Source: Escherichia coli
GTDB lineage: Bacteria; Pseudomonadota; Gammaproteobacteria; Enterobacterales; Enterobacteriaceae
Direction: 5' to 3' (one strand)
DNA length: 64,000 nucleotides
Assembly: GCF_003018115.1 (NCBI RefSeq)
Contig: NZ_CP027457.1
Position 1 is the first letter of the stretch. Each line of letters begins with the position of its first letter. Below are positions 8,334-31,778 of this stretch, in pieces. The position numbers and the translations under genes are program-made. The notes beneath the pieces are model-generated. The model was not told the DNA's origin and did no database searches. It saw only the letters and a program-made list of their open reading frames with translations.

Positions 8334-8344
8334 TGAATACTCCT

Positions 8345-8853: not shown

Positions 8854-8870
8854 CGATACTTATCCTCAGT

Positions 8871-11805: not shown

Positions 11806-11864
11806 ATGTAAGTATTTCCTTAACAAATAAGAAGTTATGCGCATCAACTTATGCGCGTTGTATT

Positions 11865-11907: not shown

Positions 11908-11913
11908 GTGTTA

Positions 11914-12114: not shown

Positions 12115-12139
12115 TCTCCGTTATTAACCATGAACAAAG

Positions 12140-12179
12140 AATACTACAGGTATTCAAAGCAATCAATACTCAGGGTATT
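12140..12179. promoter_or_regulatory. oR operators: two 15-bp palindromes AATAC-N5-GTATT (12140-12154, 12165-12179) in the cI-cro intergenic region (pR/pRM)
   Basis: AATACTACAGGTATT and AATACTCAGGGTATT read directly from the sequence. Confidence 0.65.
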
Positions 12180-12214
12180 TTTAGTTTAAGTACCTTAGCT
12201 ATTAGAATTAAGCT

Positions 12215-12931: not shown

Positions 12932-13317
12932 TCACGCAAGGGGCGATTATGGTTGGAACCGCTATAGCAAGCTTTTTTGGGATGTTGGCAATCTCGACAA
13001 TTTACGGCTTAGCGCATGCTTTTATTGCGAAATCTCTATCAGAAAAAATAAGCCAGGCTTGGGCGCATAGATCAGCTCGTTTCATGATTCTGGTGATCAT
13101 AGCAATACAAGGGATATCTGCATTTATCCTCTATGGATCAAGCTTATACCTATTGTATCAAGGCGCGACATTTACGCCTTACACCAGTGATTACGGAACT
13201 CTATACGATGGTAGTGAAGACATCACTGTGGCTTGGATCGTCTTTGGTTTATCTATGGCCGTGTCTGTTGTAGCAGACATCATTAAGGTAATTCTCGTCT
13301 TAACCTTCGCTGACTAA
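12928..13317 (+). CDS. Integral membrane protein (about 4 TM helices) co-transcribed with cI, at the rex position
   Basis: 129-aa hydrophobic ORF whose ATG overlaps the cI stop (ATGA); lower GC than surroundings. Confidence 0.6.
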   Translation: MITQGAIMVGTAIASFFGMLAISTIYGLAHAFIAKSLSEKISQAWAHRSARFMILVIIAIQGISAFILYGSSLYLLYQGATFTPYTSDYGTLYDGSEDITVAWIVFGLSMAVSVVADIIKVILVLTFAD

Positions 13318-13403
13318 CCTATAATCCCGGCAGCAATAGCTATCGGGATCCACTTCACATATCCCGCATAAAAAGCACTGAACAAGCAGACACCGAAAAA
13401 ATA

Positions 13404-13488
13404 AATATCCTTTGTATTCATTTGCTTATCATTATTTCACCAAAAATAAATACCTTGGGTATTTACACAATAAAATACCTACAGTATT
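13404..13488. promoter_or_regulatory. oL operators: AATAC-N5-GTATT palindromes at 13449-13463 and 13474-13488, plus a degenerate AATAT-N5-GTATT at 13404-13418 (pL region)
   Basis: AATACCTTGGGTATT, AATACCTACAGTATT and AATATCCTTTGTATT read directly; same half-sites as oR. Confidence 0.6.
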
Positions 13489-13536
13489 CTTTAGCCATCA
13501 GCAGGACGCTGGAAGCCAAACGGAACAGATTGGCAG

Positions 13537-13576
13537 GCTCTTTAACATTGATGGGATTGTCCCGCCGAAATGCGGG
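13537..13576 (+). promoter_or_regulatory. nutL (boxA-like GCTCTTTAACA plus boxB CCCGCCGAAATGCGGG)
   Basis: Same boxB hairpin as at nutR, in the pL leader upstream of N. Confidence 0.6.
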
Positions 13577-13684
13577 AACCAAAGAGTAGTTGGCTTTGGG
13601 GTGACGTGAAGTGCAGCTGCACGACGGCAACCGGAAGATAAGCACCCGGCGCGTCACCGCCAAAGTCAATCATCGGAGGTCAAC

Positions 13685-13990
13685 ATGACAGTAGTCATTA
13701 CATATCTGGCTGACGATAACGCCAGAAATCGCCGCAGAGCACGCAGACAGGCTCAACGTGAACAGGCAATGCAAGAGCAGCGACTGGCGCGAAAAATTGC
13801 GCTAAAGCTCTCTGGTTGCGTCAGGGCAGACAAAGCAGCATCACTCGGAAGCCTTCGCTGCCAGAAGGCAGAAGAAGTCGAGCGTAAACAGAACCGTATT
13901 TACTACCGCAAGCCACGCAGTGAAATGGGTGTGACATGCTCAGGCCGCCAGAAGCAACGCGGAAAATCAATTCCAGCTTATTACGATTGA
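13685..13990 (+). CDS. N: N-type antitermination protein (arginine-rich motif)
   Basis: 101-aa ORF with N-terminal ARM (NARNRRRARRQAQREQ); first gene after nutL; central region resembles phage-21-type N as recalled. Confidence 0.6.
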   Translation: MTVVITYLADDNARNRRRARRQAQREQAMQEQRLARKIALKLSGCVRADKAASLGSLRCQKAEEVERKQNRIYYRKPRSEMGVTCSGRQKQRGKSIPAYYD

Positions 13991-13995
13991 GGTTA

Positions 13996-14265
13996 ATGAT
14001 GAAATTCAAATTGAACGATGAAGTTAAATGGTCTAGCTCATCAAACGGTGTAACGAAGGTAAAAATCGGGTTTATCGTTGAGGTGATTCCTCCTGGTGTC
14101 AACGTAAAAAAATTCGAACTAGGCCGTCTGCTAGATGCACCTGGCCTTCCGAGGAAAGAAGAGAGCTATATAGTTTGTGTAGGTCCAAGACCAGGATCTC
14201 GTGCCAAGCCAAAATATTACTGGCCGCGAGTTAATAACCTGCGTCGCTTACACGATGACAAATAG
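13996..14265 (+). CDS. Hypothetical early protein (about 89 aa)
   Basis: ORF with RBS GAGG before ATGATG at 13996; frame open from 13936. Confidence 0.5.
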   Translation: MMKFKLNDEVKWSSSSNGVTKVKIGFIVEVIPPGVNVKKFELGRLLDAPGLPRKEESYIVCVGPRPGSRAKPKYYWPRVNNLRRLHDDK

Positions 14266-14320
14266 AAGTGAGTATCCTTGTTTTACTTTTTCGCAGCAAA
14301 CCACTTATTTGAGGTGAGAT

Positions 14321-14572
14321 ATGGAATTTCATGAAAGTGCGATTTGTGATTTTCGCGCTAACGCAAATTCAGTAAAACCACAGCCAATTGCAGTTCTTTT
14401 TAAAACAATGGGTGCGTGGGCTGTTTTATGCTTCGCCGCTGATGACACTGACGCAAGAATGGCAATAGGCCAAGAGATGGAGATGGACCCGACAAACGAT
14501 GAATTCATAATTTATGGCGCTCCATCTAATTACTTACTTGATACCTGCAACATTTACAACAAGGCTGCCTGA
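14321..14572 (+). CDS. Hypothetical early protein (83 aa)
   Basis: ORF in pL operon between N and cIII. Confidence 0.5.
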   Translation: MEFHESAICDFRANANSVKPQPIAVLFKTMGAWAVLCFAADDTDARMAIGQEMEMDPTNDEFIIYGAPSNYLLDTCNIYNKAA

Positions 14573-14611
14573 TGGTGGCCTTTATTTTTGGCATAAACAA
14601 CAGAGGCTAAC

Positions 14612-14908
14612 ATGGAATTTAAAGGTACTAAAGGTAAGTGGGAAATAATGATTGATGGCGATGAGATTAAAATCATCCAGGCAGACTCACTTGAAAATGG
14701 CGCAGGCTGGCGTTCGTATATTGCAATCTGTGAGGAAGTTCAATGCATTGAAGATGCCAATCTAATAGCGGCAGCGCCTGACCTTCTCGAAGCACTTCAG
14801 TTATTACTTAAGCAAACCAAAAATAGAACAACGACAACATATCCAGAATGGTATGGAGCTGTTAATAAAGGTATCGCAGCAATCAGAAAAGCTCTTGGGG
14901 ATAAGTAA
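14612..14908 (+). CDS. Hypothetical early protein (98 aa) with IAAAPDLLEAL motif
   Basis: ORF in pL operon; motif recurs in lambdoid Ea22-like proteins. Confidence 0.5.
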   Translation: MEFKGTKGKWEIMIDGDEIKIIQADSLENGAGWRSYIAICEEVQCIEDANLIAAAPDLLEALQLLLKQTKNRTTTTYPEWYGAVNKGIAAIRKALGDK

Positions 14909-15096
14909 TGAAAGTAAAAATAACTGCTTCTAATACCAGTTTTGTTAGTGTTGGTGATATTACAGAAGTAATAACAAACCATGATGGAACACAAGTTATG
15001 TGGTCTGATTTTTGTAAAAGATATGAGCGAGTCACTTGGTGTAAACTCGTATGGGGAGTCGAATACGAAGAATTACCTGAAATGCATGACGAATAA
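14908..15096 (+). CDS. Hypothetical early protein (62 aa)
   Basis: ORF whose ATG overlaps the upstream stop. Confidence 0.45.
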   Translation: MKVKITASNTSFVSVGDITEVITNHDGTQVMWSDFCKRYERVTWCKLVWGVEYEELPEMHDE

Positions 15097-15191
15097 GCAC
15101 TGTGTATTCATTCCAACGAGTGAATACACGGAGCAATGTTGCTCGTAACTAAACAGGAGCCGACTTGTTCTGATTATTGGAAATCTTCTTT

Positions 15192-15216
15192 GCCCTCCAG
15201 TGTGAGGGCTTTTTTA
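15192..15216 (+). terminator. Intrinsic terminator (tL-like) between the small-ORF cluster and cIII
   Basis: GCCCTC-CAGTGT-GAGGGC hairpin followed by TTTTTT. Confidence 0.6.
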
Positions 15217-15281
15217 TATGCATACCAATAACGCTTCACTCGAGGCGTTTTCGTTATGCAATCAAACAGAAGGAGCATCCT

Positions 15282-15452
15282 ATGCAACAGTTCGCTATTG
15301 CAGGGGCGGCATCGGTTCGCCCTTTCAACCCGATTTTATCGGTACAGCATTCACGAAAAAACATTCTAACCGGAGCAGACTTTAAACAACCAAGAATGAA
15401 AAGTTTGCTCGAAAAGCTTTGGGATATTTTGAAACAACAAGGCCGCCCATGA
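15282..15452 (+). CDS. cIII: CIII-like protein (FtsH inhibitor)
   Basis: MQQFAIAGAASV...SLLEKLWDILKQQGRP parallels lambda CIII (MQYAIAGWP...LLERITRKL...); start is an internal ATG of the listed ORF. Confidence 0.65.
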   Translation: MQQFAIAGAASVRPFNPILSVQHSRKNILTGADFKQPRMKSLLEKLWDILKQQGRP

Positions 15453-15533
15453 GTTTTACAGATAGCTGGTCAGACGAAGAATTCATTCGTCAGATGAACA
15501 AAATGCTCAATCAGCACAAAGAACAGGAGAAAG

Positions 15534-15845
15534 ATGATGATTCTGACTCTGAATGATAAGCGTGAAATATCGCAAATAATCGCAAGTTTTACTGATGAAG
15601 ATTACGAACGAATCAACAGTGAAGTTGATCGCCTCTGCAAACGTTGCGACCCAATAAGCGAAATGCTTCGATCATATAAACCAGATGAACACACTAAGGA
15701 CGCTATCGACTGGCTGGAAGATGATGACTGTAACTATCAGGAAAAAGCCGCTGAATGGTTCTGGGATGCAATAACCGAAAGAGTTAAGGCTGAATATGCC
15801 TTCGCAATATTCAAACGCAGACATATTTATGGAGAAGCTGCATGA
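15534..15845 (+). CDS. Hypothetical protein (103 aa) at the gam/kil position
   Basis: Acidic ORF immediately upstream of and overlapping recT. Confidence 0.5.
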   Translation: MMILTLNDKREISQIIASFTDEDYERINSEVDRLCKRCDPISEMLRSYKPDEHTKDAIDWLEDDDCNYQEKAAEWFWDAITERVKAEYAFAIFKRRHIYGEAA

Positions 15846-16744
15846 GCAATATCGTTGAATTCGTTAAACAGCAAGAGCAGTTATTCTGCGGAGCATTGAC
15901 TGAACAGACGGTGACATGGGCTAAGGAAAGCCAGTTTGCAATTCAGTATTTCCAGAAAAACGATTACCTGGCTAAAACAGCACTGGCAAATCCAACCAGC
16001 GCACAGAACGCCATCATCAATGTTGCGGCGATCGGCATCACCTTAAACCCGGCCAGCAAACTGGCTTATCTGGTTCCTCGCGACGGCATGGTGTGCCTTG
16101 ATATCAGTTACATGGGATTACTTCATCTTGCGCAATCGACAGGATCAATTAAGTGGGGGCAATGCAAACTGGTGTACTCAAACGACACCTATGAATCAAA
16201 TGGCCTTGATTCAGCACCAACCCACAAATACAACGCATTTGGTGAGCGAGGCTCTATTGTTGGAGGTTATTGCACGGTTAAAACAGCAGATGGTGACTAC
16301 CTGACTGAAGAAATGAGTCTGGCAGAAATTAAAGCTGTGGAAGCAACGAGCAAGGCAAAGAATGGACCGTGGAAAACATTCTGGGAAGAGATGGCGCGTA
16401 AAACAATAGTTAAACGCGCCAGCAAATACTGGCCTAAAGCCCAGCGACTGGATAATGCCATTCACCTGCTTAACGAAGATGAAGGTGTGCATCAGGAACC
16501 AGTTATGCCGCACAAATCAGAGGAAGATATCCGCGAAGATGAACGGAAACGCCAGCAGGAAATAATGGATAAAGCACAACTTCTTTGCGATGAAATGTCT
16601 CAGGCAGAAAACATGGATGATTTGAAGCGATATTTTGCAGAAGCATATCGCCTGACATCTGGAATGAAATTGCAGCAGAACGTACAAGCCATTTACATAG
16701 AATGCAAAGCGAAACTGGAGGTTGCCAGTGAGCAAACTGTATGA
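15842..16744 (+). CDS. recT: RecT-family single-strand annealing protein
   Basis: 300-aa ORF; motif NGPWKTFWEEMARKTIVKRASKYWP matches the RecT signature. Confidence 0.8.
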   Translation: MSNIVEFVKQQEQLFCGALTEQTVTWAKESQFAIQYFQKNDYLAKTALANPTSAQNAIINVAAIGITLNPASKLAYLVPRDGMVCLDISYMGLLHLAQSTGSIKWGQCKLVYSNDTYESNGLDSAPTHKYNAFGERGSIVGGYCTVKTADGDYLTEEMSLAEIKAVEATSKAKNGPWKTFWEEMARKTIVKRASKYWPKAQRLDNAIHLLNEDEGVHQEPVMPHKSEEDIREDERKRQQEIMDKAQLLCDEMSQAENMDDLKRYFAEAYRLTSGMKLQQNVQAIYIECKAKLEVASEQTV

Positions 16745-17210
16745 AATAGCCAATGAATACGCAAAGCTGATGGATTCAGATTTAGAGCCAGAGATGATTG
16801 CTGACACAATAGAAGGCATGGAAGGAGAATTTACCGATAAAATAGAGCAACTTCTCGCCATTATTAAAAATGAATCTGGTTATGCTGAACGCCTCAAGGA
16901 AGAGGCAAAGTCACTAAATGAGAGAGCCGCAGTAATTCAAAATAAGATTGACAGCATTATGGCGTATATAGCGTCATCGCTTGAAATGGTTGGCAAGAAA
17001 AAGATTCGAGCAGGTATTCACCAGGTAACAATCCGCAAACCGTCAGAAACTGTAGAAATCATCGACTCAAGCGCCCTTCCTCCTGAATACGTTGAATTTG
17101 AAACGACAATTAAAGCCGACAAACTGGCAATCAAACACCAACTAAAAGCAGGAATAAATATCCCCGGCGCTCAACTCAAAGTTGGGAAACCTTCACTTCT
17201 TATCAAATAA
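16722..17210 (+). CDS. Siphovirus Gp157-family protein
   Basis: About 160-aa ORF overlapping recT end; resembles Gp157-family proteins that commonly accompany RecT/Erf genes; probable GTG start at 16728. Confidence 0.45.
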   Translation: MPVSKLYEIANEYAKLMDSDLEPEMIADTIEGMEGEFTDKIEQLLAIIKNESGYAERLKEEAKSLNERAAVIQNKIDSIMAYIASSLEMVGKKKIRAGIHQVTIRKPSETVEIIDSSALPPEYVEFETTIKADKLAIKHQLKAGINIPGAQLKVGKPSLLIK

Positions 17211-17221
17211 CGGTATCGCCT

Positions 17222-17536
17222 ATGAAAAAGACTCCATGGGAGAAATGGGAAGTCGATTTCTTGCGCGAAGTGGCGGCGACAATGCCAGTTGAAGTTATCG
17301 CTGAAAAACTGGAAAGGACTGAAAAAGCAGTAATGGCGAAAGCAACAAGGATTGGAGCTGACATTGTTAGCCGACTTCGTGGAAGACGCTGGACAAGAGC
17401 CGAAGTATCACTTTTCGGTAAGTTCTCCGCAGAAGAAATAGCAATTGCAACCTGCCGCTCAATTTATTCAGTAAGAGCTATGAGATACAAGCTAAAAAAA
17501 CTCGATGAAGAAAGAGCAGGCATACGAATAAATTAA
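17222..17536 (+). CDS. Hypothetical protein (104 aa) with two internal repeats (possible DNA-binding)
   Basis: Two similar segments (WEKWEVDFLREVA...AEKLERTEKAVMAKATRIG and RRWTRAEVSLF...TCRSIYSVRAMRYKLKK). Confidence 0.5.
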   Translation: MKKTPWEKWEVDFLREVAATMPVEVIAEKLERTEKAVMAKATRIGADIVSRLRGRRWTRAEVSLFGKFSAEEIAIATCRSIYSVRAMRYKLKKLDEERAGIRIN

Positions 17537-17552
17537 CATGGAGTAATTAACA

Positions 17553-17834
17553 ATGAAGCTAAACATAGACCTAGGCAAATATGTTATTACAGGAACCAAA
17601 CACGACCTGATTCTTAGTGAAAGAGGAATTATCAAAGAAGGTGAGAATGCAGGGAAAGAAACACTAAGCCGTATCGGTTATTACAGCAAGTTTGAGCATC
17701 TGGTTAAAGAGTTATGTAACCGTGAAATCCTGTTATCTCAGGCGCAGACGCTACAGGATATTCAGCAGCATATCGAAACTTTAGGTATGTCACTTAGCAT
17801 GGCTATTGACCAGTTCGTGGAGAGTAAATCATGA
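17553..17834 (+). CDS. Hypothetical protein (93 aa)
   Basis: ORF with RBS, in the early leftward operon. Confidence 0.5.
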
Positions 17835-17973
17835 GAGGACTTGCATACAATCCCGGCATTCTTCCGGCAGAAATGATTATTCGCCAACGCGTAAAACCAA
17901 TGCCATCGAGAGAGGAATTGCTTAAGAGAAATTCTTTTCCATCAGTGAATCAAAACAAATATCTGAATGCTAT

Positions 17974-18468
17974 GTGGCGGAGTGGGAAGAAATGAAACTA
18001 ATGTCACTAATTGAGATGGATGGTTTTCTGAAAGGTAAATGCATCCCACGAGATTTAAAGGTTAACGAAACAAACGCTGAATATCTGGTGCGTAAGTTCG
18101 GTGAGCTTGAATCAAAACTGGAAACGGCGTTGCGGGAGTGTCGTTCTGCTGGAATCACGATTGATAACCTTGAGGCTAAATGCGCGAAGATGGCTGCTGA
18201 AAATACCTCGCTTAAGCAATCTGAGAAGGAATTTAATGACTTTTGTCGTGAGGAGTTTAGCGAATGGGAAGATGATGTTACTGAACCCCAAGCCACCGAT
18301 GCTTTCCTGGCTGAAGTCCGGGCTAAGGCGTTTGATGACCTTTGCGCGGCGTTCGTTAAGCACGCGTCGGTGTCCGGGCTGGACGATGGCGACTGCGTTA
18401 CGGTGAAAGAGGCGACTGACGCCCTGCTGCATTGTGCGGAACAGCTTCACGAGGGAGTGCATTCATGA
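17974..18468 (+). CDS. Hypothetical acidic coiled-coil protein (about 158-164 aa)
   Basis: ORF; stop overlaps the next gene's ATG (ATGA). Confidence 0.5.
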
Positions 18469-18707
18469 GCAACCTACTACCATGTCCATTCTGTGGCGGC
18501 GCAGCGCACGTTGCCAGCGAAGCAGATCACCCTGAATATGGCTCTGGCGGTCGATTCTATTTCGTTCGATGCGGTACGTGTCGCGCTCAATCTGGTAGCA
18601 AATATGCAGCGCCTGGAAATGACTGCGCGATTTTTTATTCAGAGGTTAGAGCAGAGTGGAATCAGCGAGCAAAGGAGGCAACCAGTGAGCGGAAAAAGAA
18701 TGACTAA
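18465..18707 (+). CDS. lar: Lar-like restriction alleviation protein (CPFCGG zinc-finger)
   Basis: From ATG 18465: [42 protein letters not shown]..., the Cys pattern of the Lar family. Confidence 0.5.
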   Translation: MSNLLPCPFCGGAAHVASEADHPEYGSGGRFYFVRCGTCRAQSGSKYAAPGNDCAIFYSEVRAEWNQRAKEATSERKKND

Positions 18708-18909
18708 CAGAGAGCTTGTTGATGCCGCCATTAAGCTTGCTGGTGATTTTTATTCAATGATGGGGTACACGCATCGCCCAGGCTTCAAATATTGGGAGTC
18801 TCCGCACCCGCAAGAGCAACTGGTATTTCAAATGGCCTGCCGTGCTTTTGAGGTTATTCGCGGTTCTGATGTGATGGACGCCGTTGCCGACTTGGAGGAT
18901 GAAGAGTGA
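18685..18909 (+). CDS. Hypothetical protein (about 74 aa)
   Basis: GTG at 18685 preceded by AAAGGAGG; overlaps the Lar 3' end in another frame. Confidence 0.45.
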   Translation: MSGKRMTNRELVDAAIKLAGDFYSMMGYTHRPGFKYWESPHPQEQLVFQMACRAFEVIRGSDVMDAVADLEDEE

Positions 18910-19358
18910 GCAAGATTGACTATCAGGCACTGCGTGAAAAGGCAGAGAAAGCAACGTGTGGGGTGTGGTCGCTCGAATATGGAGAGGAGAGATTTGATGC
19001 TGATGATGCGCTAATTCATCGTGAAGTTGTTGGATATCTTCCCATTTGCAGAATTGAAGGAGCGCATCCAGAAAGCGGTTTCGATGAAGATTTCCAAATG
19101 GAACAGCAGGCCAATGCTGAATTCATCGCCGCAGCCAATCCAGCTACCGTGCTGGCGCTGCTGGATGAGCTGGAAGCCAAAGACAAGCGGATTGCTGACA
19201 TGGAGGCGCGGGAGGTTGTACTGCCGCGTGCGCACGATGTTCACCCATTAGGGCCGCAGGCGGCGAAAATTTTTTGTGAGTTTCACCGGAGTATCGTGAA
19301 CAGATGCGCCGATGAGATTCGCAAGGTTGGCATCAAAGTCAGCATCAAGGGGAATTAG
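18906..19358 (+). CDS. Ea22-like early protein
   Basis: 150-aa ORF with AAANPATVLALLDELEAKDKRIADME motif typical of Ea22-family proteins. Confidence 0.45.
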   Translation: MSKIDYQALREKAEKATCGVWSLEYGEERFDADDALIHREVVGYLPICRIEGAHPESGFDEDFQMEQQANAEFIAAANPATVLALLDELEAKDKRIADMEAREVVLPRAHDVHPLGPQAAKIFCEFHRSIVNRCADEIRKVGIKVSIKGN

Positions 19359-19362
19359 GGAT

Positions 19363-19896
19363 ATGGCTGAACTAACCAAAGAATGGCTGAAGCAAACTAT
19401 CGCTGAATACGAAGCCAATCGTGATGAATTACCGTTTGGACTGGATACCAACAGTGCCATTGGGCTTCAGGCGTTCAAGTTGGCGCTGGCATCGCTGGAA
19501 GCAGAGCCGGTGGCGTGGGAGGTAACCTTCACGCAAATTGACCGTGAATATAACACGTTCACTGGTATGTATCCTGACAAAGCAGAAGTCGAACGGTGGG
19601 TGCGTCTGCATAAAGCATGTAATTTTCGGGCAGATATAACACCGCTTTATACCGCCAAGCCAGTGCCGGTAACTCCGGATGGTTGGATAAGCTGTAGTGA
19701 GCGAATGCCGGAAAAGAATCAGAACGTGCTTATTTCGGTGAATTTCGATAGCTCTCTGGTTGAACCGCTAATATGCTCCGCACGCTATACAGGAAGCACA
19801 TTCCGGCGAGGGGAAGCAACGATTAAGCCGGGTAATGGTATTGAGCAGGCAACTCACTGGATGCCGCTACCAGAACCGCCGCAGGAGGCGAAATGA
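19363..19896 (+). CDS. DUF551-like phage protein
   Basis: About 177-aa ORF with C-terminal ATHWMPLPEPP motif seen in DUF551 prophage proteins. Confidence 0.5.
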   Translation: MAELTKEWLKQTIAEYEANRDELPFGLDTNSAIGLQAFKLALASLEAEPVAWEVTFTQIDREYNTFTGMYPDKAEVERWVRLHKACNFRADITPLYTAKPVPVTPDGWISCSERMPEKNQNVLISVNFDSSLVEPLICSARYTGSTFRRGEATIKPGNGIEQATHWMPLPEPPQEAK

Positions 19897-20153
19897 TGGA
19901 TGTAAAAGAGAAGGTTTTGCAGGTGATGCGTTCCCGGGCTGCCCTGCAAGATAAAGCTCTCGGCGGGGAATATCAATTCAGGATGGCAACCTGGAATCTG
20001 CGGTTGGCAATGGAGAAGGAATTTCCTGATGAAGAATGGCGTTCGGCAGATTTGCGCAAAATTCTTATGGAGCTGGCTAAAGACGGAGCAGTATCCAAAG
20101 ATACCTATGCCAGCCGGATTGGTCAGGCGGTATGGAGACTGGAGGTGCGGTAA
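19893..20153 (+). CDS. Hypothetical protein (86 aa)
   Basis: ORF with ATGA overlap to upstream gene. Confidence 0.5.
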   Translation: MMDVKEKVLQVMRSRAALQDKALGGEYQFRMATWNLRLAMEKEFPDEEWRSADLRKILMELAKDGAVSKDTYASRIGQAVWRLEVR

Positions 20154-20247
20154 TGGCTAACCTGCAACTTGCCGTCAAAGGTGAATAACAATCCTCGCAC
20201 TCGCGGGGATTTCTTTTATCTGAACTCGCTATGGCGGGTTTTGTTTT

Positions 20248-20559
20248 ATGGAGATGATTATGGCCTATTCAACATTCAACCCTTTAACGTTACAGAAATA
20301 CCAGACAGACCCTGAAGATTTATGCTCACTGTGTGGCGGAAATCATGGTAAAGCAGCCATGATCGAATGTAAGGACAAAATCCACATTTGCCTTAATTGC
20401 GTTGATGTCCTCGTTGATATCAAAAATGAAAGAGAAGATAAAAAGCGTAGCGAGGCTATTCGCGCCTTAGATTCATGGATGCGAGATGGGTATAGTGCTG
20501 CGCAAATTTATGACTTAGCCATTTCAAAAGGCGAAATACCAGGTGTGCGAATCGAATAA
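20248..20559 (+). CDS. Small Cys-rich protein (CxxC...CxxC; about 99-103 aa)
   Basis: Motifs CSLCGG and CLNCVD. Confidence 0.5.
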   Translation: MEMIMAYSTFNPLTLQKYQTDPEDLCSLCGGNHGKAAMIECKDKIHICLNCVDVLVDIKNEREDKKRSEAIRALDSWMRDGYSAAQIYDLAISKGEIPGVRIE

Positions 20560-20594
20560 GAAGCGCACTCAAGCATCTTTTGGAGAAATCACAA

Positions 20595-20762
20595 ATGCAC
20601 TTCCGAGTCACAGGTGAATGGAATGGAGAGCCATTCAACAGAGTTATCGAAGCAGAGAACATCAATGACTGCTATGACCACTGGATGATATGGGCGCAGA
20701 TAGCACATGCAGAAGTAACCAATATTCGAATTGAAGAACTGAAAGAACACCAAGCCGCCTGA
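20595..20762 (+). CDS. Hypothetical protein (55 aa)
   Basis: ORF MHFRVTGEWNGEPF... ending in an intrinsic terminator. Confidence 0.4.
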   Translation: MHFRVTGEWNGEPFNRVIEAENINDCYDHWMIWAQIAHAEVTNIRIEELKEHQAA

Positions 20763-20776
20763 TGGCGGTTTTTTCT
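20753..20776 (+). terminator. Intrinsic terminator upstream of xis
   Basis: GCCGCC-TGAT-GGCGG hairpin followed by TTTTTTCTT. Confidence 0.65.
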
Positions 20777-20801
20777 TGCGTGTAATTGCGGAGACTTTGC
20801 G

Positions 20802-21020
20802 ATGTACTTGACACTTCAGGAGTGGAACGCACGCCAGCGACGCCCAAGAAGCCTTGAAACAGTTCGTCGATGGGTGCGCGAATGCAGGATATTCCCACCA
20901 CCGGTTAAGGATGGAAGAGAGTATCTGTTCCACGAATCAGCGGTAAAGGTTGACTTAAATCGACCAGTAACAGGTAGCCTTTTGAAGAGGATCAGAAATG
21001 GGAAGAAGGCGAAGTCATGA
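20802..21020 (+). CDS. xis: Excisionase (lambda Xis-type)
   Basis: 72-aa ORF MYLTLQEWNARQRRPRSLETVRRWVRECRIFPPPVKDGREYLFHESAVKV..., recognised as lambda Xis; overlaps int start. Confidence 0.85.
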   Translation: MYLTLQEWNARQRRPRSLETVRRWVRECRIFPPPVKDGREYLFHESAVKVDLNRPVTGSLLKRIRNGKKAKS

Positions 21021-22068
21021 GCGCCGGGATTTACCCCCTAACCTTTATATAAGAAACAATGGATATTACTGCTACAGGGACCCAAGGACGGGTAAAGAGT
21101 TCGGATTAGGCAGAGACAGGAGGATAGCAATCACTGAAGCTATACAGGCCAACATTGAGTTATTTTCAGGACACAAACACAAGCCTCTGACAGCGAGAAT
21201 CAACAGTGATAATTCTGTTACGTTACATTCATGGCTTGATCGCTACGAAAAAATCCTCGCCAGCAGAGGAATCAAGCAGAAGACACTCATAAATTACATG
21301 AGCAAAATTAAAGCAATAAGGAGGGGGCTGCCTGATGTTCCACTTGAAGACATCACCACAAAAGAAATTGCGGCAATGCTCAATGGATACATAGACGAGG
21401 GCAAGGCGGCATCAGCCAAGTTAATCAGATCAACACTGAGCGATGCATTCCGAGAGGCTATAGCTGAAGGCCATATAACAACAAACCCGGTCGCTGCTAC
21501 TCGCGCAGCAAAATCAGAGGTAAGGAGATCAAGGCTTACGGCTGACGAATACCTGAAAATTTATCAAGCAGCAGAATCATCACCATGTTGGTTAAGACTT
21601 GCAATGGAACTGGCTGTTGTTACCGGACAGCGAGTTGGTGATTTATGCGAAATGAAGTGGTCTGATATCGTAGATGGATATCTTTATGTCGAGCAAAGCA
21701 AAACAGGCGTAAAAATTGCCATCCCAACAGCATTGCATGTTGATGCTCTCGGAATATCAATGAAGGAAACACTTGATAAATGCAAAGAGATTCTTGGCGG
21801 AGAAACCATAATTGCATCTACTCGTCGTGAACCGCTTTCATCCGGCACAGTATCAAGGTATTTTATGCGCGCACGAAAAGCATCAGGTCTTTCCTTCGAA
21901 GGGGATCCGCCTACCTTTCACGAGTTGCGCAGTTTGTCTGCAAGACTCTATGAGAAGCAGATAAGCGATAAGTTTGCTCAACATCTTCTCGGGCATAAGT
22001 CGGACACCATGGCATCACAGTATCGTGATGACAGAGGCAGGGAGTGGGACAAAATTGAAATCAAATAA
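20998..22068 (+). CDS. int: Tyrosine integrase (lambda Int-type, 356 aa)
   Basis: 356-aa ORF MGRRRSHERRDLPPNLYIRNNGYYCYRDPRTGKEFGLGRDRR..., recognised as lambda Int; transcribed toward the att junction. Confidence 0.9.
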   Translation: MGRRRSHERRDLPPNLYIRNNGYYCYRDPRTGKEFGLGRDRRIAITEAIQANIELFSGHKHKPLTARINSDNSVTLHSWLDRYEKILASRGIKQKTLINYMSKIKAIRRGLPDVPLEDITTKEIAAMLNGYIDEGKAASAKLIRSTLSDAFREAIAEGHITTNPVAATRAAKSEVRRSRLTADEYLKIYQAAESSPCWLRLAMELAVVTGQRVGDLCEMKWSDIVDGYLYVEQSKTGVKIAIPTALHVDALGISMKETLDKCKEILGGETIIASTRREPLSSGTVSRYFMRARKASGLSFEGDPPTFHELRSLSARLYEKQISDKFAQHLLGHKSDTMASQYRDDRGREWDKIEIK

Positions 22069-22141
22069 TGATTTTATTTTGACTGATAGTGACCTGTTCG
22101 TTGCAACAAATTGATAAGCAATGCTTTTTTATAATGCCAAC

Positions 22142-22156
22142 TTAGTATAAAAAAGC
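22142..22156. other. attL core (lambda 15-bp common core, complement of GCTTTTTTATACTAA) at the prophage-host junction
   Basis: TTAGTATAAAAAAGC preceded by lambda P'-arm-like sequence and followed by host AGGCTTCA. Confidence 0.8.
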
Positions 22157-22202
22157 AGGCTTCAACGGATTCATTTTTCTATTTCATAGCCCGGAGCAAC
22201 CT

Positions 22203-23486
22203 GTGAACACATTTTCAGTTTCCCGTCTGGCGCTGGCATTGGCTTTTGGCGTGACGCTGACCGCCTGTAGCTCAACACCACCCGATCAACGTCCTTCTGA
22301 TCAAACTGCGCCTGGTACCTCTTCTCGCCCGATTCTGTCGGCAAAAGAAGCGCAGAATTTCGATGCTCAACACTATTATGCATCCCTGACACCAGGTGCT
22401 GCAGCGTGGAATCCGTCCCCGATAACCCTGCCTGCGCAACCTGACTTTGTTGTCGGCCCGGCGGGTACTCAAGGTGTAACGCATACCACGATTCAGGCGG
22501 CGGTAGATGCGGCAATTATCAAGCGCACCAACAAGCGCCAGTATATTGCCGTGATGCCTGGTGAGTATCAGGGAACGGTGTATGTCCCTGCTGCTCCAGG
22601 TGGAATTACTCTGTACGGTACAGGTGAAAAACCGATTGATGTGAAGATTGGGCTTTCCCTTGATGGGGGCATGAGCCCTGCCGACTGGCGTCACGACGTC
22701 AACCCGCGCGGCAAATATATGCCAGGTAAACCAGCGTGGTATATGTACGATAGCTGCCAGCGCAAACGCAGCGACAGTATCGGTGTTCTGTGTTCTGCGG
22801 TCTTCTGGTCACAAAACAATGGCCTGCAACTGCAAAATCTGACCATCGAAAACACGCTGGGCGATAGCGTAGATGCAGGTAACCATCCGGCGGTGGCACT
22901 GCGTACTGACGGTGACCAGGTACAGATTAACAACGTTAACATTCTCGGTCGTCAGAACACCTTCTTTGTCACCAACAGCGGTGTGCAGAACCGTCTGGAA
23001 ACGAATCGTCAGCCGCGTACGCTGGTGACCAACAGCTACATTGAAGGGGATGTGGATATCGTTTCTGGTCGCGGCGCAGTGGTGTTCGATAACACCGAAT
23101 TCCGCGTGGTGAACTCACGTACTCAGCAAGAAGCGTATGTGTTTGCACCGGCTACGCTGTCCAACATCTATTACGGTTTCCTCGCCGTAAACAGCCGTTT
23201 CAATGCTTCCGGTGATGGCGTGGCGCAACTGGGCCGCTCGCTGGATGTTGATGCCAATACCAACGGTCAGGTGGTGATCCGTGATAGCGCCATCAACGAA
23301 GGTTTTAACACGGTTAAACCGTGGGGCGATGCGGTGATCTCTAATCGTCCGTTTGCGGGTAATACCGGCAGCGTTGACGATAGCGACGAAATACAGCGCA
23401 ATCTGAATGACACTAACTACAACCGCATGTGGGAATACAATAACCGCGGCGTGGGTAGCAAAGTGGTTGCAGAGGCGAAGAAGTAA
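22203..23486 (+). CDS. ybhC: Pectinesterase-like outer-membrane lipoprotein YbhC
   Basis: 427-aa ORF with lipoprotein signal (LTACSS); position adjacent to attB-lambda. Confidence 0.9.
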   Translation: MNTFSVSRLALALAFGVTLTACSSTPPDQRPSDQTAPGTSSRPILSAKEAQNFDAQHYYASLTPGAAAWNPSPITLPAQPDFVVGPAGTQGVTHTTIQAAVDAAIIKRTNKRQYIAVMPGEYQGTVYVPAAPGGITLYGTGEKPIDVKIGLSLDGGMSPADWRHDVNPRGKYMPGKPAWYMYDSCQRKRSDSIGVLCSAVFWSQNNGLQLQNLTIENTLGDSVDAGNHPAVALRTDGDQVQINNVNILGRQNTFFVTNSGVQNRLETNRQPRTLVTNSYIEGDVDIVSGRGAVVFDNTEFRVVNSRTQQEAYVFAPATLSNIYYGFLAVNSRFNASGDGVAQLGRSLDVDANTNGQVVIRDSAINEGFNTVKPWGDAVISNRPFAGNTGSVDDSDEIQRNLNDTNYNRMWEYNNRGVGSKVVAEAKK

Positions 23487-23501
23487 GAGCTATTAACTAT
23501 T

Positions 23502-23612
<111 letters not shown>

Positions 23613-23626
23613 TCACATGGCGCTTT

Positions 23627-25888
23627 TTACATCTGACGGTTTTTATTGAAGTTAATCAAACTACCCGCCTTGATAATCTCGCGCTCTTCAGCAGTCAGAC
23701 TTTCCATATAGAGCGTAATTTCCGTTACCGGCGCATCTTCATGGATCACATAACCTTTAAACGTCGTACCCGGATTATCCAGCGCCGCTTTAATGCCAGG
23801 GATGTAAATGTAATCCCCCACTTCAAAGGTTGGCACTTCCGCCATTTGCAGCGGTAACATCCCCCAGTTGATGACGTTAGAACGATAGCGTTTAGTCGCG
23901 TACTCCTCGGCAATATTCGCCAGACCGCCAATCACACGCTGGCAGCTCGCCGCCTGTTCACGCGCAGAACCATCGCCTGGTTTCACCGCATAGACCATGC
24001 TGCCAATTTCAGTTTGCAGCGGATCAATATGCTCCTGACCAGCAATCTGCTTAATGCGCGCAAACACCTCTGTCAGCTCGCTGACATTCCCCGCCAGACG
24101 CTGATTTTCCAGCTCAGCAGTCGCTTTACTTCTGCCAACATAACCGGGATCGCGGCGAGACAGGGTAAACTCCGCCAGACCAATCGGATTTGAACGATAA
24201 GAAGAGGTTTCACCGGAAGGGATCAGTTCGTCGGTGGTGGTCACTTCGTCGAGGATCTTCGAGCACACTTTGAGGACGATATTGTCAGTCAGCGCACCTA
24301 ATTCCGGCCAGTCTTTAATGTTCGGTCCGTAAATCAGCGGTTGCTGAGTTGCCCCTTTCACAAAGCCCTGATAAACACGGTTTTTATACGGCGTTACATC
24401 GAAGGCGTACTCCGGCACGTTGTCCCAGCAATCGAGTTCGCTGGCAGAAGTTAAATAGCCACCGTTTCCCGCAGTCGCAGCGATAGAACGAGCGTCCATC
24501 AACGCCACCGCTGACATCTGCCCATTAGCTGGCTTAGAGCCTTCGCGGTTCGGGAAGTTACGCGTGGTGTGGCGAATACTTAAACCGTTGTTGATTGGCG
24601 TATCGCCCGCGCCAAAGCATGGGCCGCAGAACGCGGTTCTGATGATTGCGCCTGCGCCAATCAAATCTGCTACCACACCTTTTTTGGCGAGATCCATAAA
24701 CACCGGCTGTGATGACGGGTAAACCGCCAGCGAGAAGGTGTCATTGCCACAGGATTGACCGCGCAGTGCATTCGCCGCCGCGATGACGTTTTCGTAGTTA
24801 CCGCCAGAACAGCCCGCGATAATCCCCTGCTGCACTTTCAGGCGACCATTTTCCACTTTATCCAGCAGCGAGAGTTTGGCTTTACCGTGCGCCACGCGCT
24901 CGGACTCAATTTCAATCTCACGTAGAATGTCGGTCAGGTTCTGGTTCAGCGTGTCGATTTCATACACGTTGCTCGGGTGGAACGGCAGCGCAATCATTGG
25001 TTTGATGGCGCTTAAATCAACGCTGATGCAGCCATCGTAGTACGCCATCGGTTGAGGGTTAAGCTGGCAGTAATCCTGGCCGCGACCGTGCAGCGCCAGC
25101 CAGTTATGCACTTCTTCATCGGTTTGCCAGACAGAACTTAAACAGGTCGTTTCAGTGGTCATAACGTCAACACTGTTACGGAAATCGGTAGAGAGCGCAG
25201 CAATACCGGGACCTACGAATTCCATCACTTTGTTTTTGACGTAGCCGTTTTTGAACACGGCACCGATGATAGCCAGCGCCACATCCTGCGGCCCCACATA
25301 CGGCGCTGGTTTTCCGGTCAGATGCACCGCAACAACTCCCGGATAGTCGATATCCCAGGTGTCATTAAGCAATTGTTTTACCAACTCGCCGCCGCCCTCA
25401 CCGACTGCCATTGTCCCTAATGCACCGTAACGGGTGTGACTGTCTGACCCGAGGATCATTTTGCCGCCACCTGCCATCATCTCACGCATATATTGATGGA
25501 TGACCGCAATATGCGGAGGCACAAAAATACCGCCATAACGCTGAGCCGCCGATAAACCAAAAACATGGTCATCACCGTTAATGGTGCCGCCGACGGCGCA
25601 AAGTGAGTTATGGCAGTTGGTCAGCACATACGGCAGCGGGAAACGTTCCATACCGGACGCTTTAGCGGTCTGTACTATACCAACAAAGGTAATATCGTGA
25701 GAGGCTAATGAATCAAACTTAATTTTAAGTTTATCCATATTTCCGGACGTATTATGAGAAGAGAGAATAGACCAGGCAATAGTGCCTTTTTTGGCTTCTT
25801 CTTTTTTAATTTCGCCGGTGAAATGTTCTTCGGCAATTATTTCGTTATTACTGGCGAGAAACACGCCTTTTTCAGATAACTTGATCAT
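23627..25888 (-). CDS. ybhJ: Aconitase-family protein YbhJ
   Basis: ORF of about 753 aa (start MIKLSEKG) with aconitase-type Cys ligand motifs. Confidence 0.85.
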
Positions 25889-26070
25889 TAAATGCTCCAG
25901 ATATCTGCGCACCGTGAAGTGCGCAAAAAGATAATAAATGGATATACTCTAAATAATTCGAGTTGCAGGAAGGCGACAAGCGAGTGAATCCCCAGGAGCT
26001 TACATAAGTAAGTGACTGGGGTGAGCGAACGCAGACTCAGCACATGCAACTTGAAGTATGACGAGTATAT

Positions 26071-27504
26071 TTACAGCATGTTCCAGCCGATCAGCATATT
26101 CCACCACCACACTCCGAGGGTGATATGCACCAGGAAGGTTAATATCGTCAGTACCGCACCGACCAACCACCAGGATTTAATATCGTTATAACCCACGCCA
26201 AAGATGACCGGACCTGCCGCGCCGCCATAGTGAGTAACCATGCCGCCATAGGAGTTGGAGAACAACAGTGCCAGCGCGGTTAACATTAACGGTGCGCCGG
26301 AGACGTTCGCCAGCATGGCAAATACCGGTAACATAGCAACGATATAGGCACTACCGGAAGCGAAGAAATAACGCACGATGATGCTGAGGAAAATAATAAC
26401 GAAGAAAGCAACGTTACCGTGACCATCAAATGCCAGGTTATTTTTAAAGACTTCAGCTAACCATTCGAAAAATTTAACTTTCGATAATAAGGAGCTTAAG
26501 CCGATAATACCGCCGTACCAGATTAAGGTATTCCAGCCGCCTTTATTTTTAACCACGTCTTCCCAGGTAACGATACCCAGCAGCAGCATAGTCGCCATAA
26601 CAACGATTGCCACGGTGGATTCATCAACCCCCAGAGACTTACTGAAAATCCAGCCCAGCAGCGCCAGCACAAAGACACCGAGCAGCATTTTTTCGCGGAT
26701 TTTCATCGGTCCCAGTTCGGCAAGGCCCGCTTTAGCGATGGTTTTGTTATCCACCTTCTTAATTTCTGGTGGATACATGGTGTAAATCACCAGCGGGGTG
26801 ACCAGCAGCATAATGATGCCCGGCAATCCGGCGGCCAGCGCCCATCCACCCCAGCTAATTTGCAGGTGCAGAATGTCGTTGATCATTTTCAGCGCCAGAA
26901 TGTTCCCCGCCATTGCGGTAAAGAACATATAGCTGGTGGTTTTGGTGACCATGTAAATGGACATCATCAGGTAATGTCCGACACGACGCGGACTTTTTTC
27001 CGGTTCGGACCCCAAAGCCACCGCCACGCTGTTGATGATCGGTAACACAATGCCGCCCGCACGCGCGGTGTTAGACGGTGTTGCCGGAGCCAGTACCAGA
27101 TCGAGGAATACCGTAACGTAACCCAGACCCAGCGTGGTGTTACCGATTTTACCAATCAGCAGATAGGCAATACGTTTACCTAAACCGGTGGTCACAAATG
27201 CGGCGCTTAAGGTAAACGCCGAGAACACCAGCCAGGTAGTACCTGAAGAGTAACCGCTTAATACGGCGGTGGTTTTAAACGCACCGTCGGATAAGTTACC
27301 GACCACCACCATGGAGGCAGCAACGGCAATTAACAGTACGACAGGTTCCGGGAAAGGCTTGATAACCAGCCCCACAATGGCCGCCAGGTAAATACCAAAA
27401 AGCACCCACGCCAGTTCGCTTAATCCTGCCGGAGCTGGCATAAAGCCAATAATACATGGGATCGCTAATATGAGAATTAGCTTCCATAACGATTTCTTAT
27501 TCAT
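26071..27504 (-). CDS. ybhI: Anion (DASS-family) transporter YbhI
   Basis: 477-aa polytopic membrane ORF in conserved position. Confidence 0.85.
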   Translation of the reverse strand: MNKKSLWKLILILAIPCIIGFMPAPAGLSELAWVLFGIYLAAIVGLVIKPFPEPVVLLIAVAASMVVVGNLSDGAFKTTAVLSGYSSGTTWLVFSAFTLSAAFVTTGLGKRIAYLLIGKIGNTTLGLGYVTVFLDLVLAPATPSNTARAGGIVLPIINSVAVALGSEPEKSPRRVGHYLMMSIYMVTKTTSYMFFTAMAGNILALKMINDILHLQISWGGWALAAGLPGIIMLLVTPLVIYTMYPPEIKKVDNKTIAKAGLAELGPMKIREKMLLGVFVLALLGWIFSKSLGVDESTVAIVVMATMLLLGIVTWEDVVKNKGGWNTLIWYGGIIGLSSLLSKVKFFEWLAEVFKNNLAFDGHGNVAFFVIIFLSIIVRYFFASGSAYIVAMLPVFAMLANVSGAPLMLTALALLFSNSYGGMVTHYGGAAGPVIFGVGYNDIKSWWLVGAVLTILTFLVHITLGVWWWNMLIGWNML

Positions 27505-27579
27505 TTAAAATCCTGTTCTTTCTGTATGACTCATACAGAAGTCCTTTATTGATTGTCCTTATCCTGACAACGAATCTTT

Positions 27580-28632
27580 TCAGGGAAGATAAACTTCACC
27601 GGAAAATATTTTTCTGGTCGTCCGAATAACAGATGCGCGTAACGTCGTGGCATCCTGACCTTCATTAGTTAAATGAACGTCGAGCGCACCACTGGGGTGT
27701 TCAATATTGATATTGCCATATCCTACAGAAGGGATGATTTGTCGGGTGACGGTGCCTTCCAATGCACAACTACTGGAAATAGCAATAGCACCGGTTATCG
27801 CCAACGCGCGATGGCAAGAATGCGGCATAAAATAACGCACATTAATTGCCCCGCCTTTCTGCGCTGGAGAAATAAGCACAGGTTTAGGGATAACCATATT
27901 ACTGACATCACCTAAGCCCATTGCTTTACCCGCTTGTAGACGGATAGATTCAATGCGGGCTAATAATGCTTTGTCGGCATCCAGTTCCGCCGGTAATTCA
28001 TAGCCTGTTTTTCCCAGATATTCAGCCGGAATAATGACGACTGGCATCGCCATATCGATACAGGTCACCGGGACATCGTCAAAATAATCAATCTGATTAT
28101 CAGTCGGGAAAACTTTTCCGGTTTTGGTTCCAGCGGCATTCAGGAAAGTGAGCGCAACCGGTGCGGCAGTACCCGGTACGCCGTCAATTCTGGCGCTACC
28201 CTCGTACTCGACAACACCATTTGGCGTTTGCACATCAGCTTCGATGAACGTACCCGTATTGACGTTGCGGATACGTACACGGGTAACTGGCGAAGTCGCT
28301 GCAATCAAACCATTTTCAATGGCGAATGCGCCAACGCCAGACAGCATATTGCCGCAGTTAGGCGTGGTATCGACACGTTGCTCATGGACGATAACTTGAG
28401 CAAACAGATAATCAACATCAGCACGCGGATCGCTGGAACGGCTAATAATGGCGACTTTACTAGTCAGCGGATTACCGCCGCCAATACCGTCAATTTCCAG
28501 ATCGTTACCGGAACCCATAATTGCCATCAATATTTTATCGCGCTGCGTTTGATCTTCGGGTAAATGTTCCGCTAACAGGAACGCGCCCCTCGAGGTTCCA
28601 CCTCGCATCATCACGCAGGGTATTTTTTTCAT
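27580..28632 (-). CDS. ybhH: PrpF/AcnD-accessory-like isomerase YbhH
   Basis: 350-aa ORF, conserved neighbour of ybhI. Confidence 0.8.
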   Translation of the reverse strand: MKKIPCVMMRGGTSRGAFLLAEHLPEDQTQRDKILMAIMGSGNDLEIDGIGGGNPLTSKVAIISRSSDPRADVDYLFAQVIVHEQRVDTTPNCGNMLSGVGAFAIENGLIAATSPVTRVRIRNVNTGTFIEADVQTPNGVVEYEGSARIDGVPGTAAPVALTFLNAAGTKTGKVFPTDNQIDYFDDVPVTCIDMAMPVVIIPAEYLGKTGYELPAELDADKALLARIESIRLQAGKAMGLGDVSNMVIPKPVLISPAQKGGAINVRYFMPHSCHRALAITGAIAISSSCALEGTVTRQIIPSVGYGNINIEHPSGALDVHLTNEGQDATTLRASVIRTTRKIFSGEVYLP

Positions 28633-28815
28633 AATAATGCCCTCAATTTAAAAACATAACTTATTGCGATATGGTTACATTAAGGACAAAGCATCTCTAA
28701 TGACTTTAGCTCAACGATTAATAACATTTTTTCATTAATTTAAGTTGGCTAAATGCAGTTAAAATTTTTAACGACCAGCCACCCAAAATCGTCGCTTCCA
28801 TTTTCCGGAGTAATA

Positions 28816-29769
28816 ATGAAGCATGAATTATCAAGTATGAAGGCATTTGTCATACTGGCAGAGTCCAGTTCATTTAACAATGCCGCTAAATTACTCAACA
28901 TTACGCAACCTGCATTAACGCGAAGAATAAAAAAGATGGAGGAAGATTTACATATTCAACTATTTGAGCGTACAACTCGCAAGGTTACGTTAACAAAAGC
29001 AGGAAAAAGGTTGCTCCCGGAGGCGCGGGAATTAATAAAGAAATTCGATGAAACGCTTTTTAATATTCGTGATATGAATGCTTATCATCGTGGTATGGTG
29101 ACGTTAGCGTGTATTCCGACCGCAGTATTTTATTTTTTACCGCTGGCAATCGGTAAATTTAATGAGCTGTATCCCAATATTAAAGTGCGGATTCTGGAAC
29201 AAGGCACGAATAATTGCATGGAATCGGTGCTATGTAACGAATCAGACTTTGGCATAAACATGAACAACGTCACAAATTCATCCATTGATTTTAGCCCACT
29301 GGTCAACGAGCCGTTCGTGCTGGCCTGTCGGCGTGACCATCCATTGGCCAAAAAGCAGCTTGTAGAATGGCAGGAGTTAGTGGGTTACAAAATGATTGGC
29401 GTACGCTCCTCCAGCGGCAACCGACTGTTGATAGAACAACAGCTAGCCGACAAGCCCTGGAAGCTGGACTGGTTTTACGAAGTGCGTCATCTTTCGACGT
29501 CATTAGGACTGGTGGAGGCAGGACTGGGGATTTCAGCGCTTCCTGGTCTGGCAATGCCCCATGCGCCCTATTCTTCGATTATTGGTATCCCACTGGTGGA
29601 ACCCGTTATACGTCGGACATTGGGGATTATTCGCCGCAAAGATGCCGTGCTTTCTCCGGCAGCTGAACGCTTTTTTGCCTTGCTGATTAATTTGTGGACT
29701 GACGATAAAGACAATTTGTGGACCAATATCGTCGAACGCCAGAGACATGCGTTACAGGAGATAGGTTAA
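28816..29769 (+). CDS. ybhD: LysR-family transcriptional regulator YbhD
   Basis: LysR HTH (MKAFVILAESSSFNNAAKLLNITQPALTRRIKKMEE); start at internal ATG 28816 for 317 aa. Confidence 0.85.
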   Translation: MKHELSSMKAFVILAESSSFNNAAKLLNITQPALTRRIKKMEEDLHIQLFERTTRKVTLTKAGKRLLPEARELIKKFDETLFNIRDMNAYHRGMVTLACIPTAVFYFLPLAIGKFNELYPNIKVRILEQGTNNCMESVLCNESDFGINMNNVTNSSIDFSPLVNEPFVLACRRDHPLAKKQLVEWQELVGYKMIGVRSSSGNRLLIEQQLADKPWKLDWFYEVRHLSTSLGLVEAGLGISALPGLAMPHAPYSSIIGIPLVEPVIRRTLGIIRRKDAVLSPAAERFFALLINLWTDDKDNLWTNIVERQRHALQEIG

Positions 29770-29809
29770 TACACCGGCGCAGGAGAGACTGCGCCGGGTA
29801 AATCAGCGG

Positions 29810-30841
<1,032 letters not shown>

Positions 30842-30959
30842 CTAAAATTAGTCGCTTTTGGCGGTGAATGCTGAATTAAAACGCAGAATTTTGTCCGATA
30901 GTGGTATCGGTGTACCATTCGCGCAGACGAAAATTCTTAACCTTAATCTGGAATACGCC

Positions 30960-31778
30960 ATGACCACACGCGTGATTGCTCTCGACTTAGACGGCACCTT
31001 ATTGACCCCGAAAAAGACCCTGCTTCCTTCATCGATAGAAGCCCTGGCCCGTGCTCGCGAAGCAGGCTATCGATTAATCATCGTCACAGGTCGCCATCAC
31101 GTCGCTATTCATCCTTTTTATCAGGCGCTGGCGCTGGATACACCTGCTATTTGCTGTAATGGCACCTATTTGTATGATTATCATGCAAAAACCGTGCTGG
31201 AAGCGGACCCAATGCCCGTTAATAAAGCCCTGCAACTCATTGAGATGCTGAATGAACACCACATTCACGGTCTGATGTATGTGGATGATGCAATGGTCTA
31301 TGAGCACCCGACCGGGCATGTCATTCGCACGTCTAACTGGGCGCAAACCCTGCCGCCGGAACAGCGTCCGACTTTCACACAAGTCGCTTCTCTGGCTGAA
31401 ACGGCGCAACAAGTTAACGCCGTATGGAAGTTCGCCCTGACGCACGATGACCTGCCGCAATTGCAGCATTTTGGTAAGCATGTCGAACATGAACTGGGAC
31501 TGGAGTGTGAATGGTCCTGGCACGATCAGGTTGATATTGCACGCGGCGGCAACAGCAAAGGTAAACGTTTGACGAAATGGGTTGAGGCGCAAGGCTGGTC
31601 GATGGAAAACGTCGTGGCGTTCGGCGATAACTTTAATGATATCAGTATGCTGGAAGCCGCTGGTACAGGCGTGGCGATGGGCAACGCCGATGACGCGGTA
31701 AAAGCGCGCGCCAACATTGTGATTGGTGATAACACCACCGACAGCATTGCCCAGTTCATTTATAGCCACCTGATTTAA
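30960..31778 (+). CDS. ybhA: HAD-family phosphatase YbhA (pyridoxal phosphate phosphatase)
   Basis: HAD motif IALDLDGTLL after start MTTRVIALD (272 aa). Confidence 0.85.
   Translation: MTTRVIALDLDGTLLTPKKTLLPSSIEALARAREAGYRLIIVTGRHHVAIHPFYQALALDTPAICCNGTYLYDYHAKTVLEADPMPVNKALQLIEMLNEHHIHGLMYVDDAMVYEHPTGHVIRTSNWAQTLPPEQRPTFTQVASLAETAQQVNAVWKFALTHDDLPQLQHFGKHVEHELGLECEWSWHDQVDIARGGNSKGKRLTKWVEAQGWSMENVVAFGDNFNDISMLEAAGTGVAMGNADDAVKARANIVIGDNTTDSIAQFIYSHLI

Follow-up and report, generated by a model that had tools for sequence, protein, structure and literature searches.

A lambda-specificity attL junction at the ybhC edge of a P22-like mosaic prophage in Escherichia coli

The DNA between a lambda-like int gene and ybhC in Escherichia coli raises the question of where the neighbouring prophage ends and by which integration system it entered the chromosome. 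We addressed this question in a stretch of 64,000 nucleotides, referred to here as the window. Our main reading, to which we give a probability of roughly 97%, is that 22066..22158 is a canonical attL (B-O-P'), formed by recombination between an attP of lambda specificity and E. coli attB(lambda), with the adjacent lambda-type Int as catalyst. Such a junction is a textbook feature, already known and ordinary. It places the right end of the prophage at 22142..22156, which matters for annotation only, and it identifies the integration module as one of lambda specificity.

Anatomy of the int-ybhC junction

The int-ybhC intergenic region corresponds exactly to 22069..22202 (Table 1). Its first 73 bp are P' arm, the 15-bp core follows, and the remaining 46 bp belong to the host. 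The lambda 15-bp core is present as a single exact copy within the window, on the minus strand, as the preliminary description had claimed; from the base composition of the window, with both strands counted, about 1.4e-4 exact matches would be expected by chance. A search with up to two mismatches found no second core elsewhere within the 64-kb window. The core had also been placed 74 bp downstream of int, and it does start 74 nt past the end of the int stop codon, 73 bases lying in between. The preliminary description further listed a sequence as the complement of the core; the pairing is right, but strictly speaking this sequence, TTAGTATAAAAAAGC, is the reverse complement. Directly after the core on the plus strand comes AGGCTTCA (22157..22164).

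Table 1. Coordinates of prophage, junction and host features in the window, with the two arms expected at the partner site.
Feature	Position	Strand	Remarks
Prophage, visible part	1..22141	-	Extends past the left window edge
Portal N-terminus	1..215	-	P22_portal
TerL	216..1715	-	Terminase_6N/6C
TerS	1693..2181	-	GP3_package (P22-type small terminase)
Lysis genes	Between Q and TerS
Q antiterminator	5496..6119	-	Antiterm
nin region	Between helicase and Q
DnaB-type helicase	9150..10526	-
Replication O	10523..11344	-	Phage_rep_O
cI-like repressor	12215..12931	+	Peptidase_S24 and HTH_3
Early-left/recombination genes, including RecT	Next after xis, right to left
xis	20802..21020	+	72 aa; shares 23 bp with the int start, like its lambda counterpart
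int	20998..22068	+	356 aa; heterobivalent tyrosine integrase, lambda specificity
P'3 arm-type Int site AAAATCATTA	22066..22075	-	Exact; +74..+83 from core centre; overlaps int stop codon
P'2 arm-type Int site CAGTCAAAAT	22076..22085	-	Exact; +64..+73 from core centre
P'1 arm-type Int site AGGTCACTAT	22086..22095	-	Exact; +54..+63 from core centre
H' IHF site TATCAATTTGTTG (consensus WATCAANNNNTTR)	22104..22116	-	Pattern match at +33..+45; same as lambda
C' core-type Int site CAACTTAGT	22138..22146	+	Exact
Common core GCTTTTTTATACTAA	22142..22156	-	Exact match and alignment
7-bp overlap TTTATAC	22145..22151		Within core
B core-type Int site CTGCTTTTT	22150..22158	-	Exact; straddles core and host arm
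Host B-side DNA	22157..22202		ybhC-side half of the intergenic region between ybhC and ybhB, as far as the ybhC start codon
ybhC	22203..23486	+	GTG start; host outer-membrane lipoprotein/pectinesterase-like; co-directional with int
B', reverse complement			Expected to read ...CCTTCCCGTTTCGCTCAAG; ybhB-bioA side
Lambda-like P arm, reverse complement			Expected to read TGAACGAGAAACG...; P2, X and H sites and tI hairpin

The Int and IHF sites of Table 1 were located by matching against the established protein-binding sequences of lambda attP. In addition, the junction contains a perfect 12-nt inverted repeat, TGCTTTTTTATA and TATAAAAAAGCA (22122..22133 versus 22146..22157), in which part of the core recurs in inverted orientation within the P' arm, a feature that derives from lambda attP. 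The repeat reaches 12 nt here because the B arm supplies one extra matching base. It also produces a core look-alike with three mismatches at 22123..22137 on the plus strand, which is present in lambda as well; this was considered as a second att core and rejected as the known inverted partial core of the P' arm. In general, core-like matches with three mismatches, including those at 15208, 22123 and 34151, occur at chance level (4 found versus 1.7 expected).

The genes flanking the junction were examined at the protein level. The Int protein is identical to lambda Int at 353 of 356 residues, and its three substitutions (A114V, H164P and I248V) are conservative and lie outside the catalytic residues R212, K235, H308, R311, H333 and Y342, all of which are present; Pfam assigns it Arm-DNA-bind_1 and Phage_integrase domains. 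Similarly, Xis matches lambda Xis at 71 of 72 positions (the change being G59S) and the Pfam family Exc with E=3.9e-41. Both int and xis are thus intact. On the host side, ybhC was identified by a Pfam Pectinesterase match and by its RefSeq annotation in K-12 and in strain F9792, the DNA of which is identical here. No terminator-like structure was found between the int stop and the ybhC start in 22069..22202.

Parental sites, the empty locus and the partner junction

To compare the junction with its presumed parents, the reverse complement of the window was aligned with two references: lambda attP, with its core at 27724-27738 of J02459, and K-12 attB, with its core between ybhC and ybhB-bioA (NC_000913.3 807328-807342). 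This alignment, which the preliminary description had put forward as a check, places the switch of parent inside the core, with the window following K-12 up to the core and lambda afterwards. From the core outward, the phage side is identical to lambda at 313/313 positions (25 mismatches in 1300 bp) and the host side to K-12 at 120/120 positions (27 mismatches in 1400 bp), while comparisons with the wrong parent were approximately 75% mismatched from the first bases. The 313 bp on the phage side represent the lambda P' arm running into int, with C', H', P'1, P'2 and P'3 all intact. What had been described as lambda P'-arm-like is therefore the lambda P' arm at 100% identity, beyond mere likeness, and the sequence assigned to the host is indeed the ybhC-side half of K-12 attB. 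Given this identity to both parental sites, together with the exact binding elements, we regard the junction as a canonical B-O-P' attL.

An empty site served as a control. By searching for the exact YbhC protein, we found a locus (L021, GCA_029652025.1) in which ybhB and ybhC are adjacent, without a prophage between them. On the ybhC side, this locus is identical to the window at 10,000/10,000 positions through the core, and from the very next base onward the two sequences differ, which confines the insertion boundary to the 15-bp core. A boundary finer than 15 bp is unobtainable, as phage and host share the entire core. The earlier statement that the boundary is fixed to the base thus holds in that the boundary falls within the core, but its resolution is 15 bp and a single base can be named only by convention. 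The conclusion that integration was site-specific, at attB(lambda) between ybhC and the bio side, agrees with the position of the K-12 core and with the empty site.

The flanking host haplotype at 22157..32156 (10 kb identical, same YbhC) was compared across four loci found through YbhC (L021-L024). On this one haplotype, the site was seen as an empty attB or occupied by a DLP12-like lambdoid prophage or by other lambdoid prophages. Since the same haplotype carries an empty or variously occupied site, attB(lambda) is polymorphic even inside one lineage. In total, the YbhC-anchored contexts comprised one empty site and three other prophages, the present prophage being absent among them.

The left edge of the window cuts through the prophage, and neither a P arm nor a second core was found within the window. 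Among relatives in which a P22-like prophage occupies this site, strain P393-F10 is the closest; its prophage is bounded by two cores in direct orientation, separated by 42.3 kb. The far junction of that prophage is of P-O-B' type: a P arm like that of lambda, with the tI hairpin region, leads into the core and K-12 B', and ybhB-bioA lies next to it. The tI/sib hairpin lies on the P-arm side of attP and hence at attR after integration, as seen in P393-F10. We infer that the present prophage has an attR at its far end and that its attL is functional.

We next consider occupancy of the site in the species as a whole. Symmetric 401-bp junction probes were searched against 5426 complete E. coli genomes. 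An attL-type junction was detected in 1918/5426 and an attR-type junction in 1919/5426 of these, and the empty B-O-B' site in 3486/5426, so that attB(lambda) is occupied in approximately 35% of complete E. coli genomes. Occupied and empty sites together account for 5404/5426 genomes. With nearly equal attL and attR counts and almost all genomes accounted for, attL without attR must be rare at the ybhC/ybhB locus.

These observations fit a simple sequence of events. A circular temperate-phage genome with an attP of lambda specificity would have recombined with attB(lambda) between ybhC and ybhB-bioA, leaving attL as the gal/ybhC-proximal recombinant junction. If the lambda paradigm applies, Int bound at P'1 and P'2 would, upon induction, bridge the IHF bend at H' and thereby reach core sites C' and B. 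The attL complex would then synapse with an attR bound by Xis, Fis, IHF and Int at the far prophage end, and sequential strand exchanges at both edges of TTTATAC would restore attP and an empty attB. An attL architecture in which Int bridges P'1-C' and P'2-B has been described (PMC4880445), and in O157:H7 ybhC/ybhB is known as a place where prophages insert (PMC8190617).

The prophage, its host background and alternative readings

From right to left, the prophage genes follow the order attL, int, xis, early genes, replication, lysis, terminase and portal, as Campbell permutation of a P22-like mosaic lambdoid phage would predict. On gene content, we classify the prophage as a phage of this kind that carries a lambda-type int/att cassette. 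Its best phage matches are P22-like and HK97-like mosaics, any single phage covering at most 56% of the query, and the best of the complete E. coli genomes covers 70% of window 1-24000. The match to lambda is limited to approximately 20680..22156.

Individual genes differed in their distribution. The exact TerL protein was absent from a large gene-position collection of NCBI genomes and JGI metagenomes, and a window-specific TerL 32-mer had no match in a viral contig collection. At the DNA level, TerL is approximately 97.5% identical to its relatives, with 31 window-specific substitutions in 1..2187, the region made up of the portal start, TerL and TerS. The exact TerS was found only in phages with a different replication module, and the rare RecT allele only in prophages at another site, beside sucrose-utilisation genes. 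The helicase is very widespread, being listed in 12,421 blocks.

Directly 3' of the cI-like repressor is a 129-aa open reading frame (12928..13317, plus strand) with a TTG start assigned by mechanical ORF calling. It occupies the position of lambda rexAB and is without a Pfam match; relatives have a similar hypothetical gene of 122 aa behind the repressor. We regard the 129-aa frame as a candidate for a moron or exclusion gene expressed during lysogeny.

On the host side, the window carries ordinary E. coli chromosome that extends from ybhC past gal and tol-pal as far as cyd and is collinear with K-12 across ybhC, mod, gal, aroG, nadA, the Lys/Val tRNA cluster, tol-pal and cydAB. This host DNA is 100% identical to strains of the ETEC O169:H41 lineage, in which the same site holds a different lambdoid prophage.

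Two features of the host DNA were noted separately. The tRNA cluster at 47593..49615 (minus strand) contains seven genes in the order Lys-Val-Lys-Val-Lys-Lys-Lys, corresponding to lysT-valT-lysW-valZ-lysY-lysZ-lysQ; gene order is as in K-12, whereas the spacer arrangement differs, and RtT repeat elements and the CpoB/ybgF RNA thermometer were also recorded there. Just upstream of cydA, collinearity with K-12 stops (58023..64000). Here, a cluster encoding methylaspartate mutase (glmS/glmL/glmE) and methylaspartate ammonia-lyase replaces the K-12 genes mngR-mngA-mngB. This region is 100% identical to ETEC O169:H41 strains and is at least 80% covered in 1129/5426 complete E. coli genomes.

Several other readings of the junction were weighed. 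The most serious is that of a grounded prophage, in which attL is intact while attR has been deleted or mutated, so that excision is lost and only a fossil junction remains. E. coli often carries defective lambdoid prophages, and the window holds neither a second core nor a P arm. Against this, int, xis, repressor, replication, Q, lysis and terminase reading frames are uninterrupted in the visible 22 kb, and the survey counts (1918 attL versus 1919 attR, with 5404/5426 genomes accounted for once empty sites are included) mean that a lone attL must be rare; we consider a grounded prophage very unlikely. Less probable again is a tandem polylysogen, in which the next att site leftwards would be a P-O-P' (attP-like) site between two tandem prophages. 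The far prophage end does lie outside the window, but the closest relative holds a single 42-kb prophage, and tandem polylysogeny would in any case leave the identity of the site as attL unchanged.

The 98-100% identity of int, xis and the P' arm to lambda might suggest that the prophage is phage lambda itself. The lambda match, however, extends over 20680..22156 or thereabouts, the packaging and portal genes are of P22 type (GP3_package, Terminase_6 and P22_portal), and the closest phages are mosaics of P22-like and HK97-like type. Moreover, HK97, 434, HK629 and HK630 are annotated with the lambda att core, indicating that this module is exchanged among lambdoid phages. A prophage of Lambdavirus lambda was therefore rejected as highly improbable, there being no lambda backbone beyond the int/att module. 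As for a 15-mer arising by chance, or a secondary att-like sequence unrelated to integration, only the AT-rich, low-complexity nature of the core speaks for it. An expectation of some 1.4e-4 exact matches speaks against it, as does the location of the core exactly where 313 bp of lambda identity meet 10 kb of host identity. The identity to lambda, K-12 and empty site L021 refutes this reading, and its probability is negligible. A canonical attL thus remains the preferred reading by a large measure of probability.

A broader account of the prophage can be offered more tentatively. It may be a previously unsequenced P22-like podovirus with an acquired lambda int/att cassette, residing in an ETEC O169:H41-like backbone that otherwise has a different lambdoid prophage or an empty site; we hold this account, taken as a whole, to be plausible but somewhat short of probable. 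Part of it is that, with no terminator between the co-directional int and ybhC genes, phage transcripts passing through int could read into ybhC. Neither the unsequenced mosaic nor ybhC read-through affects the identity of the site.

Comparison with known systems

The junction closely resembles lambda attL in K-12 lysogens. The core, the 313 bp of P' arm (100%), the B arm and the position between ybhC and ybhB-bioA are the same, and Int and Xis are each 99% identical and arranged in the same way. In contrast to a lambda lysogen, the present prophage has P22-type packaging and portal genes and a mosaic early region.

Among sequenced genomes, P393-F10 (NZ_CP076274.1) shares the site, the core, the int/xis module and the overall gene order, with 96.6% identity over the 70% of window 1-24000 that it covers. 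Differences concern nin region genes and part of the early-left region, and its RecT region is only 93% identical. ETEC1701 (NZ_CP122938.1) has a prophage similar to the P22-like prophage of P393-F10 at ybhC/ybhB.

Phages HK97, 434, HK629 and HK630 have int-attP modules that are 98-99% identical to that in the window, with the core annotated as that of lambda, but they are siphoviruses with other late genes. Lederbergvirus Gally (OV696608.1) is itself P22-like and has a homologous Int; its att region, at 3850..4260, contains P and P' arms homologous to those of lambda, with arm-type sites, an IHF site and a tI hairpin. The core region of Gally, CCTTTAGGTGAATAAGTTG, is different, and its integration specificity thus differs as well. 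The Gally core presumably resembles that of HK022. The lambda 15-mer was absent from Gally, which we had considered as an isolated P22-like phage with a lambda att site and rejected on account of its different core. An HK022-type att site was likewise rejected for the window, the core of which is the exact lambda 15-mer, from which the alternative core of Gally differs. Gally thereby combines conservation of the arms with a switch of core specificity among P22-like phages.

As HK97, 434, HK629 and HK630 share the lambda core while Gally has the arms with another core, the int/att cassette behaves as a mobile lambdoid module. The junction described here illustrates both the heavy use of attB(lambda) in E. 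coli and a lambda int/att cassette that is common to morphologically different lambdoid phages.
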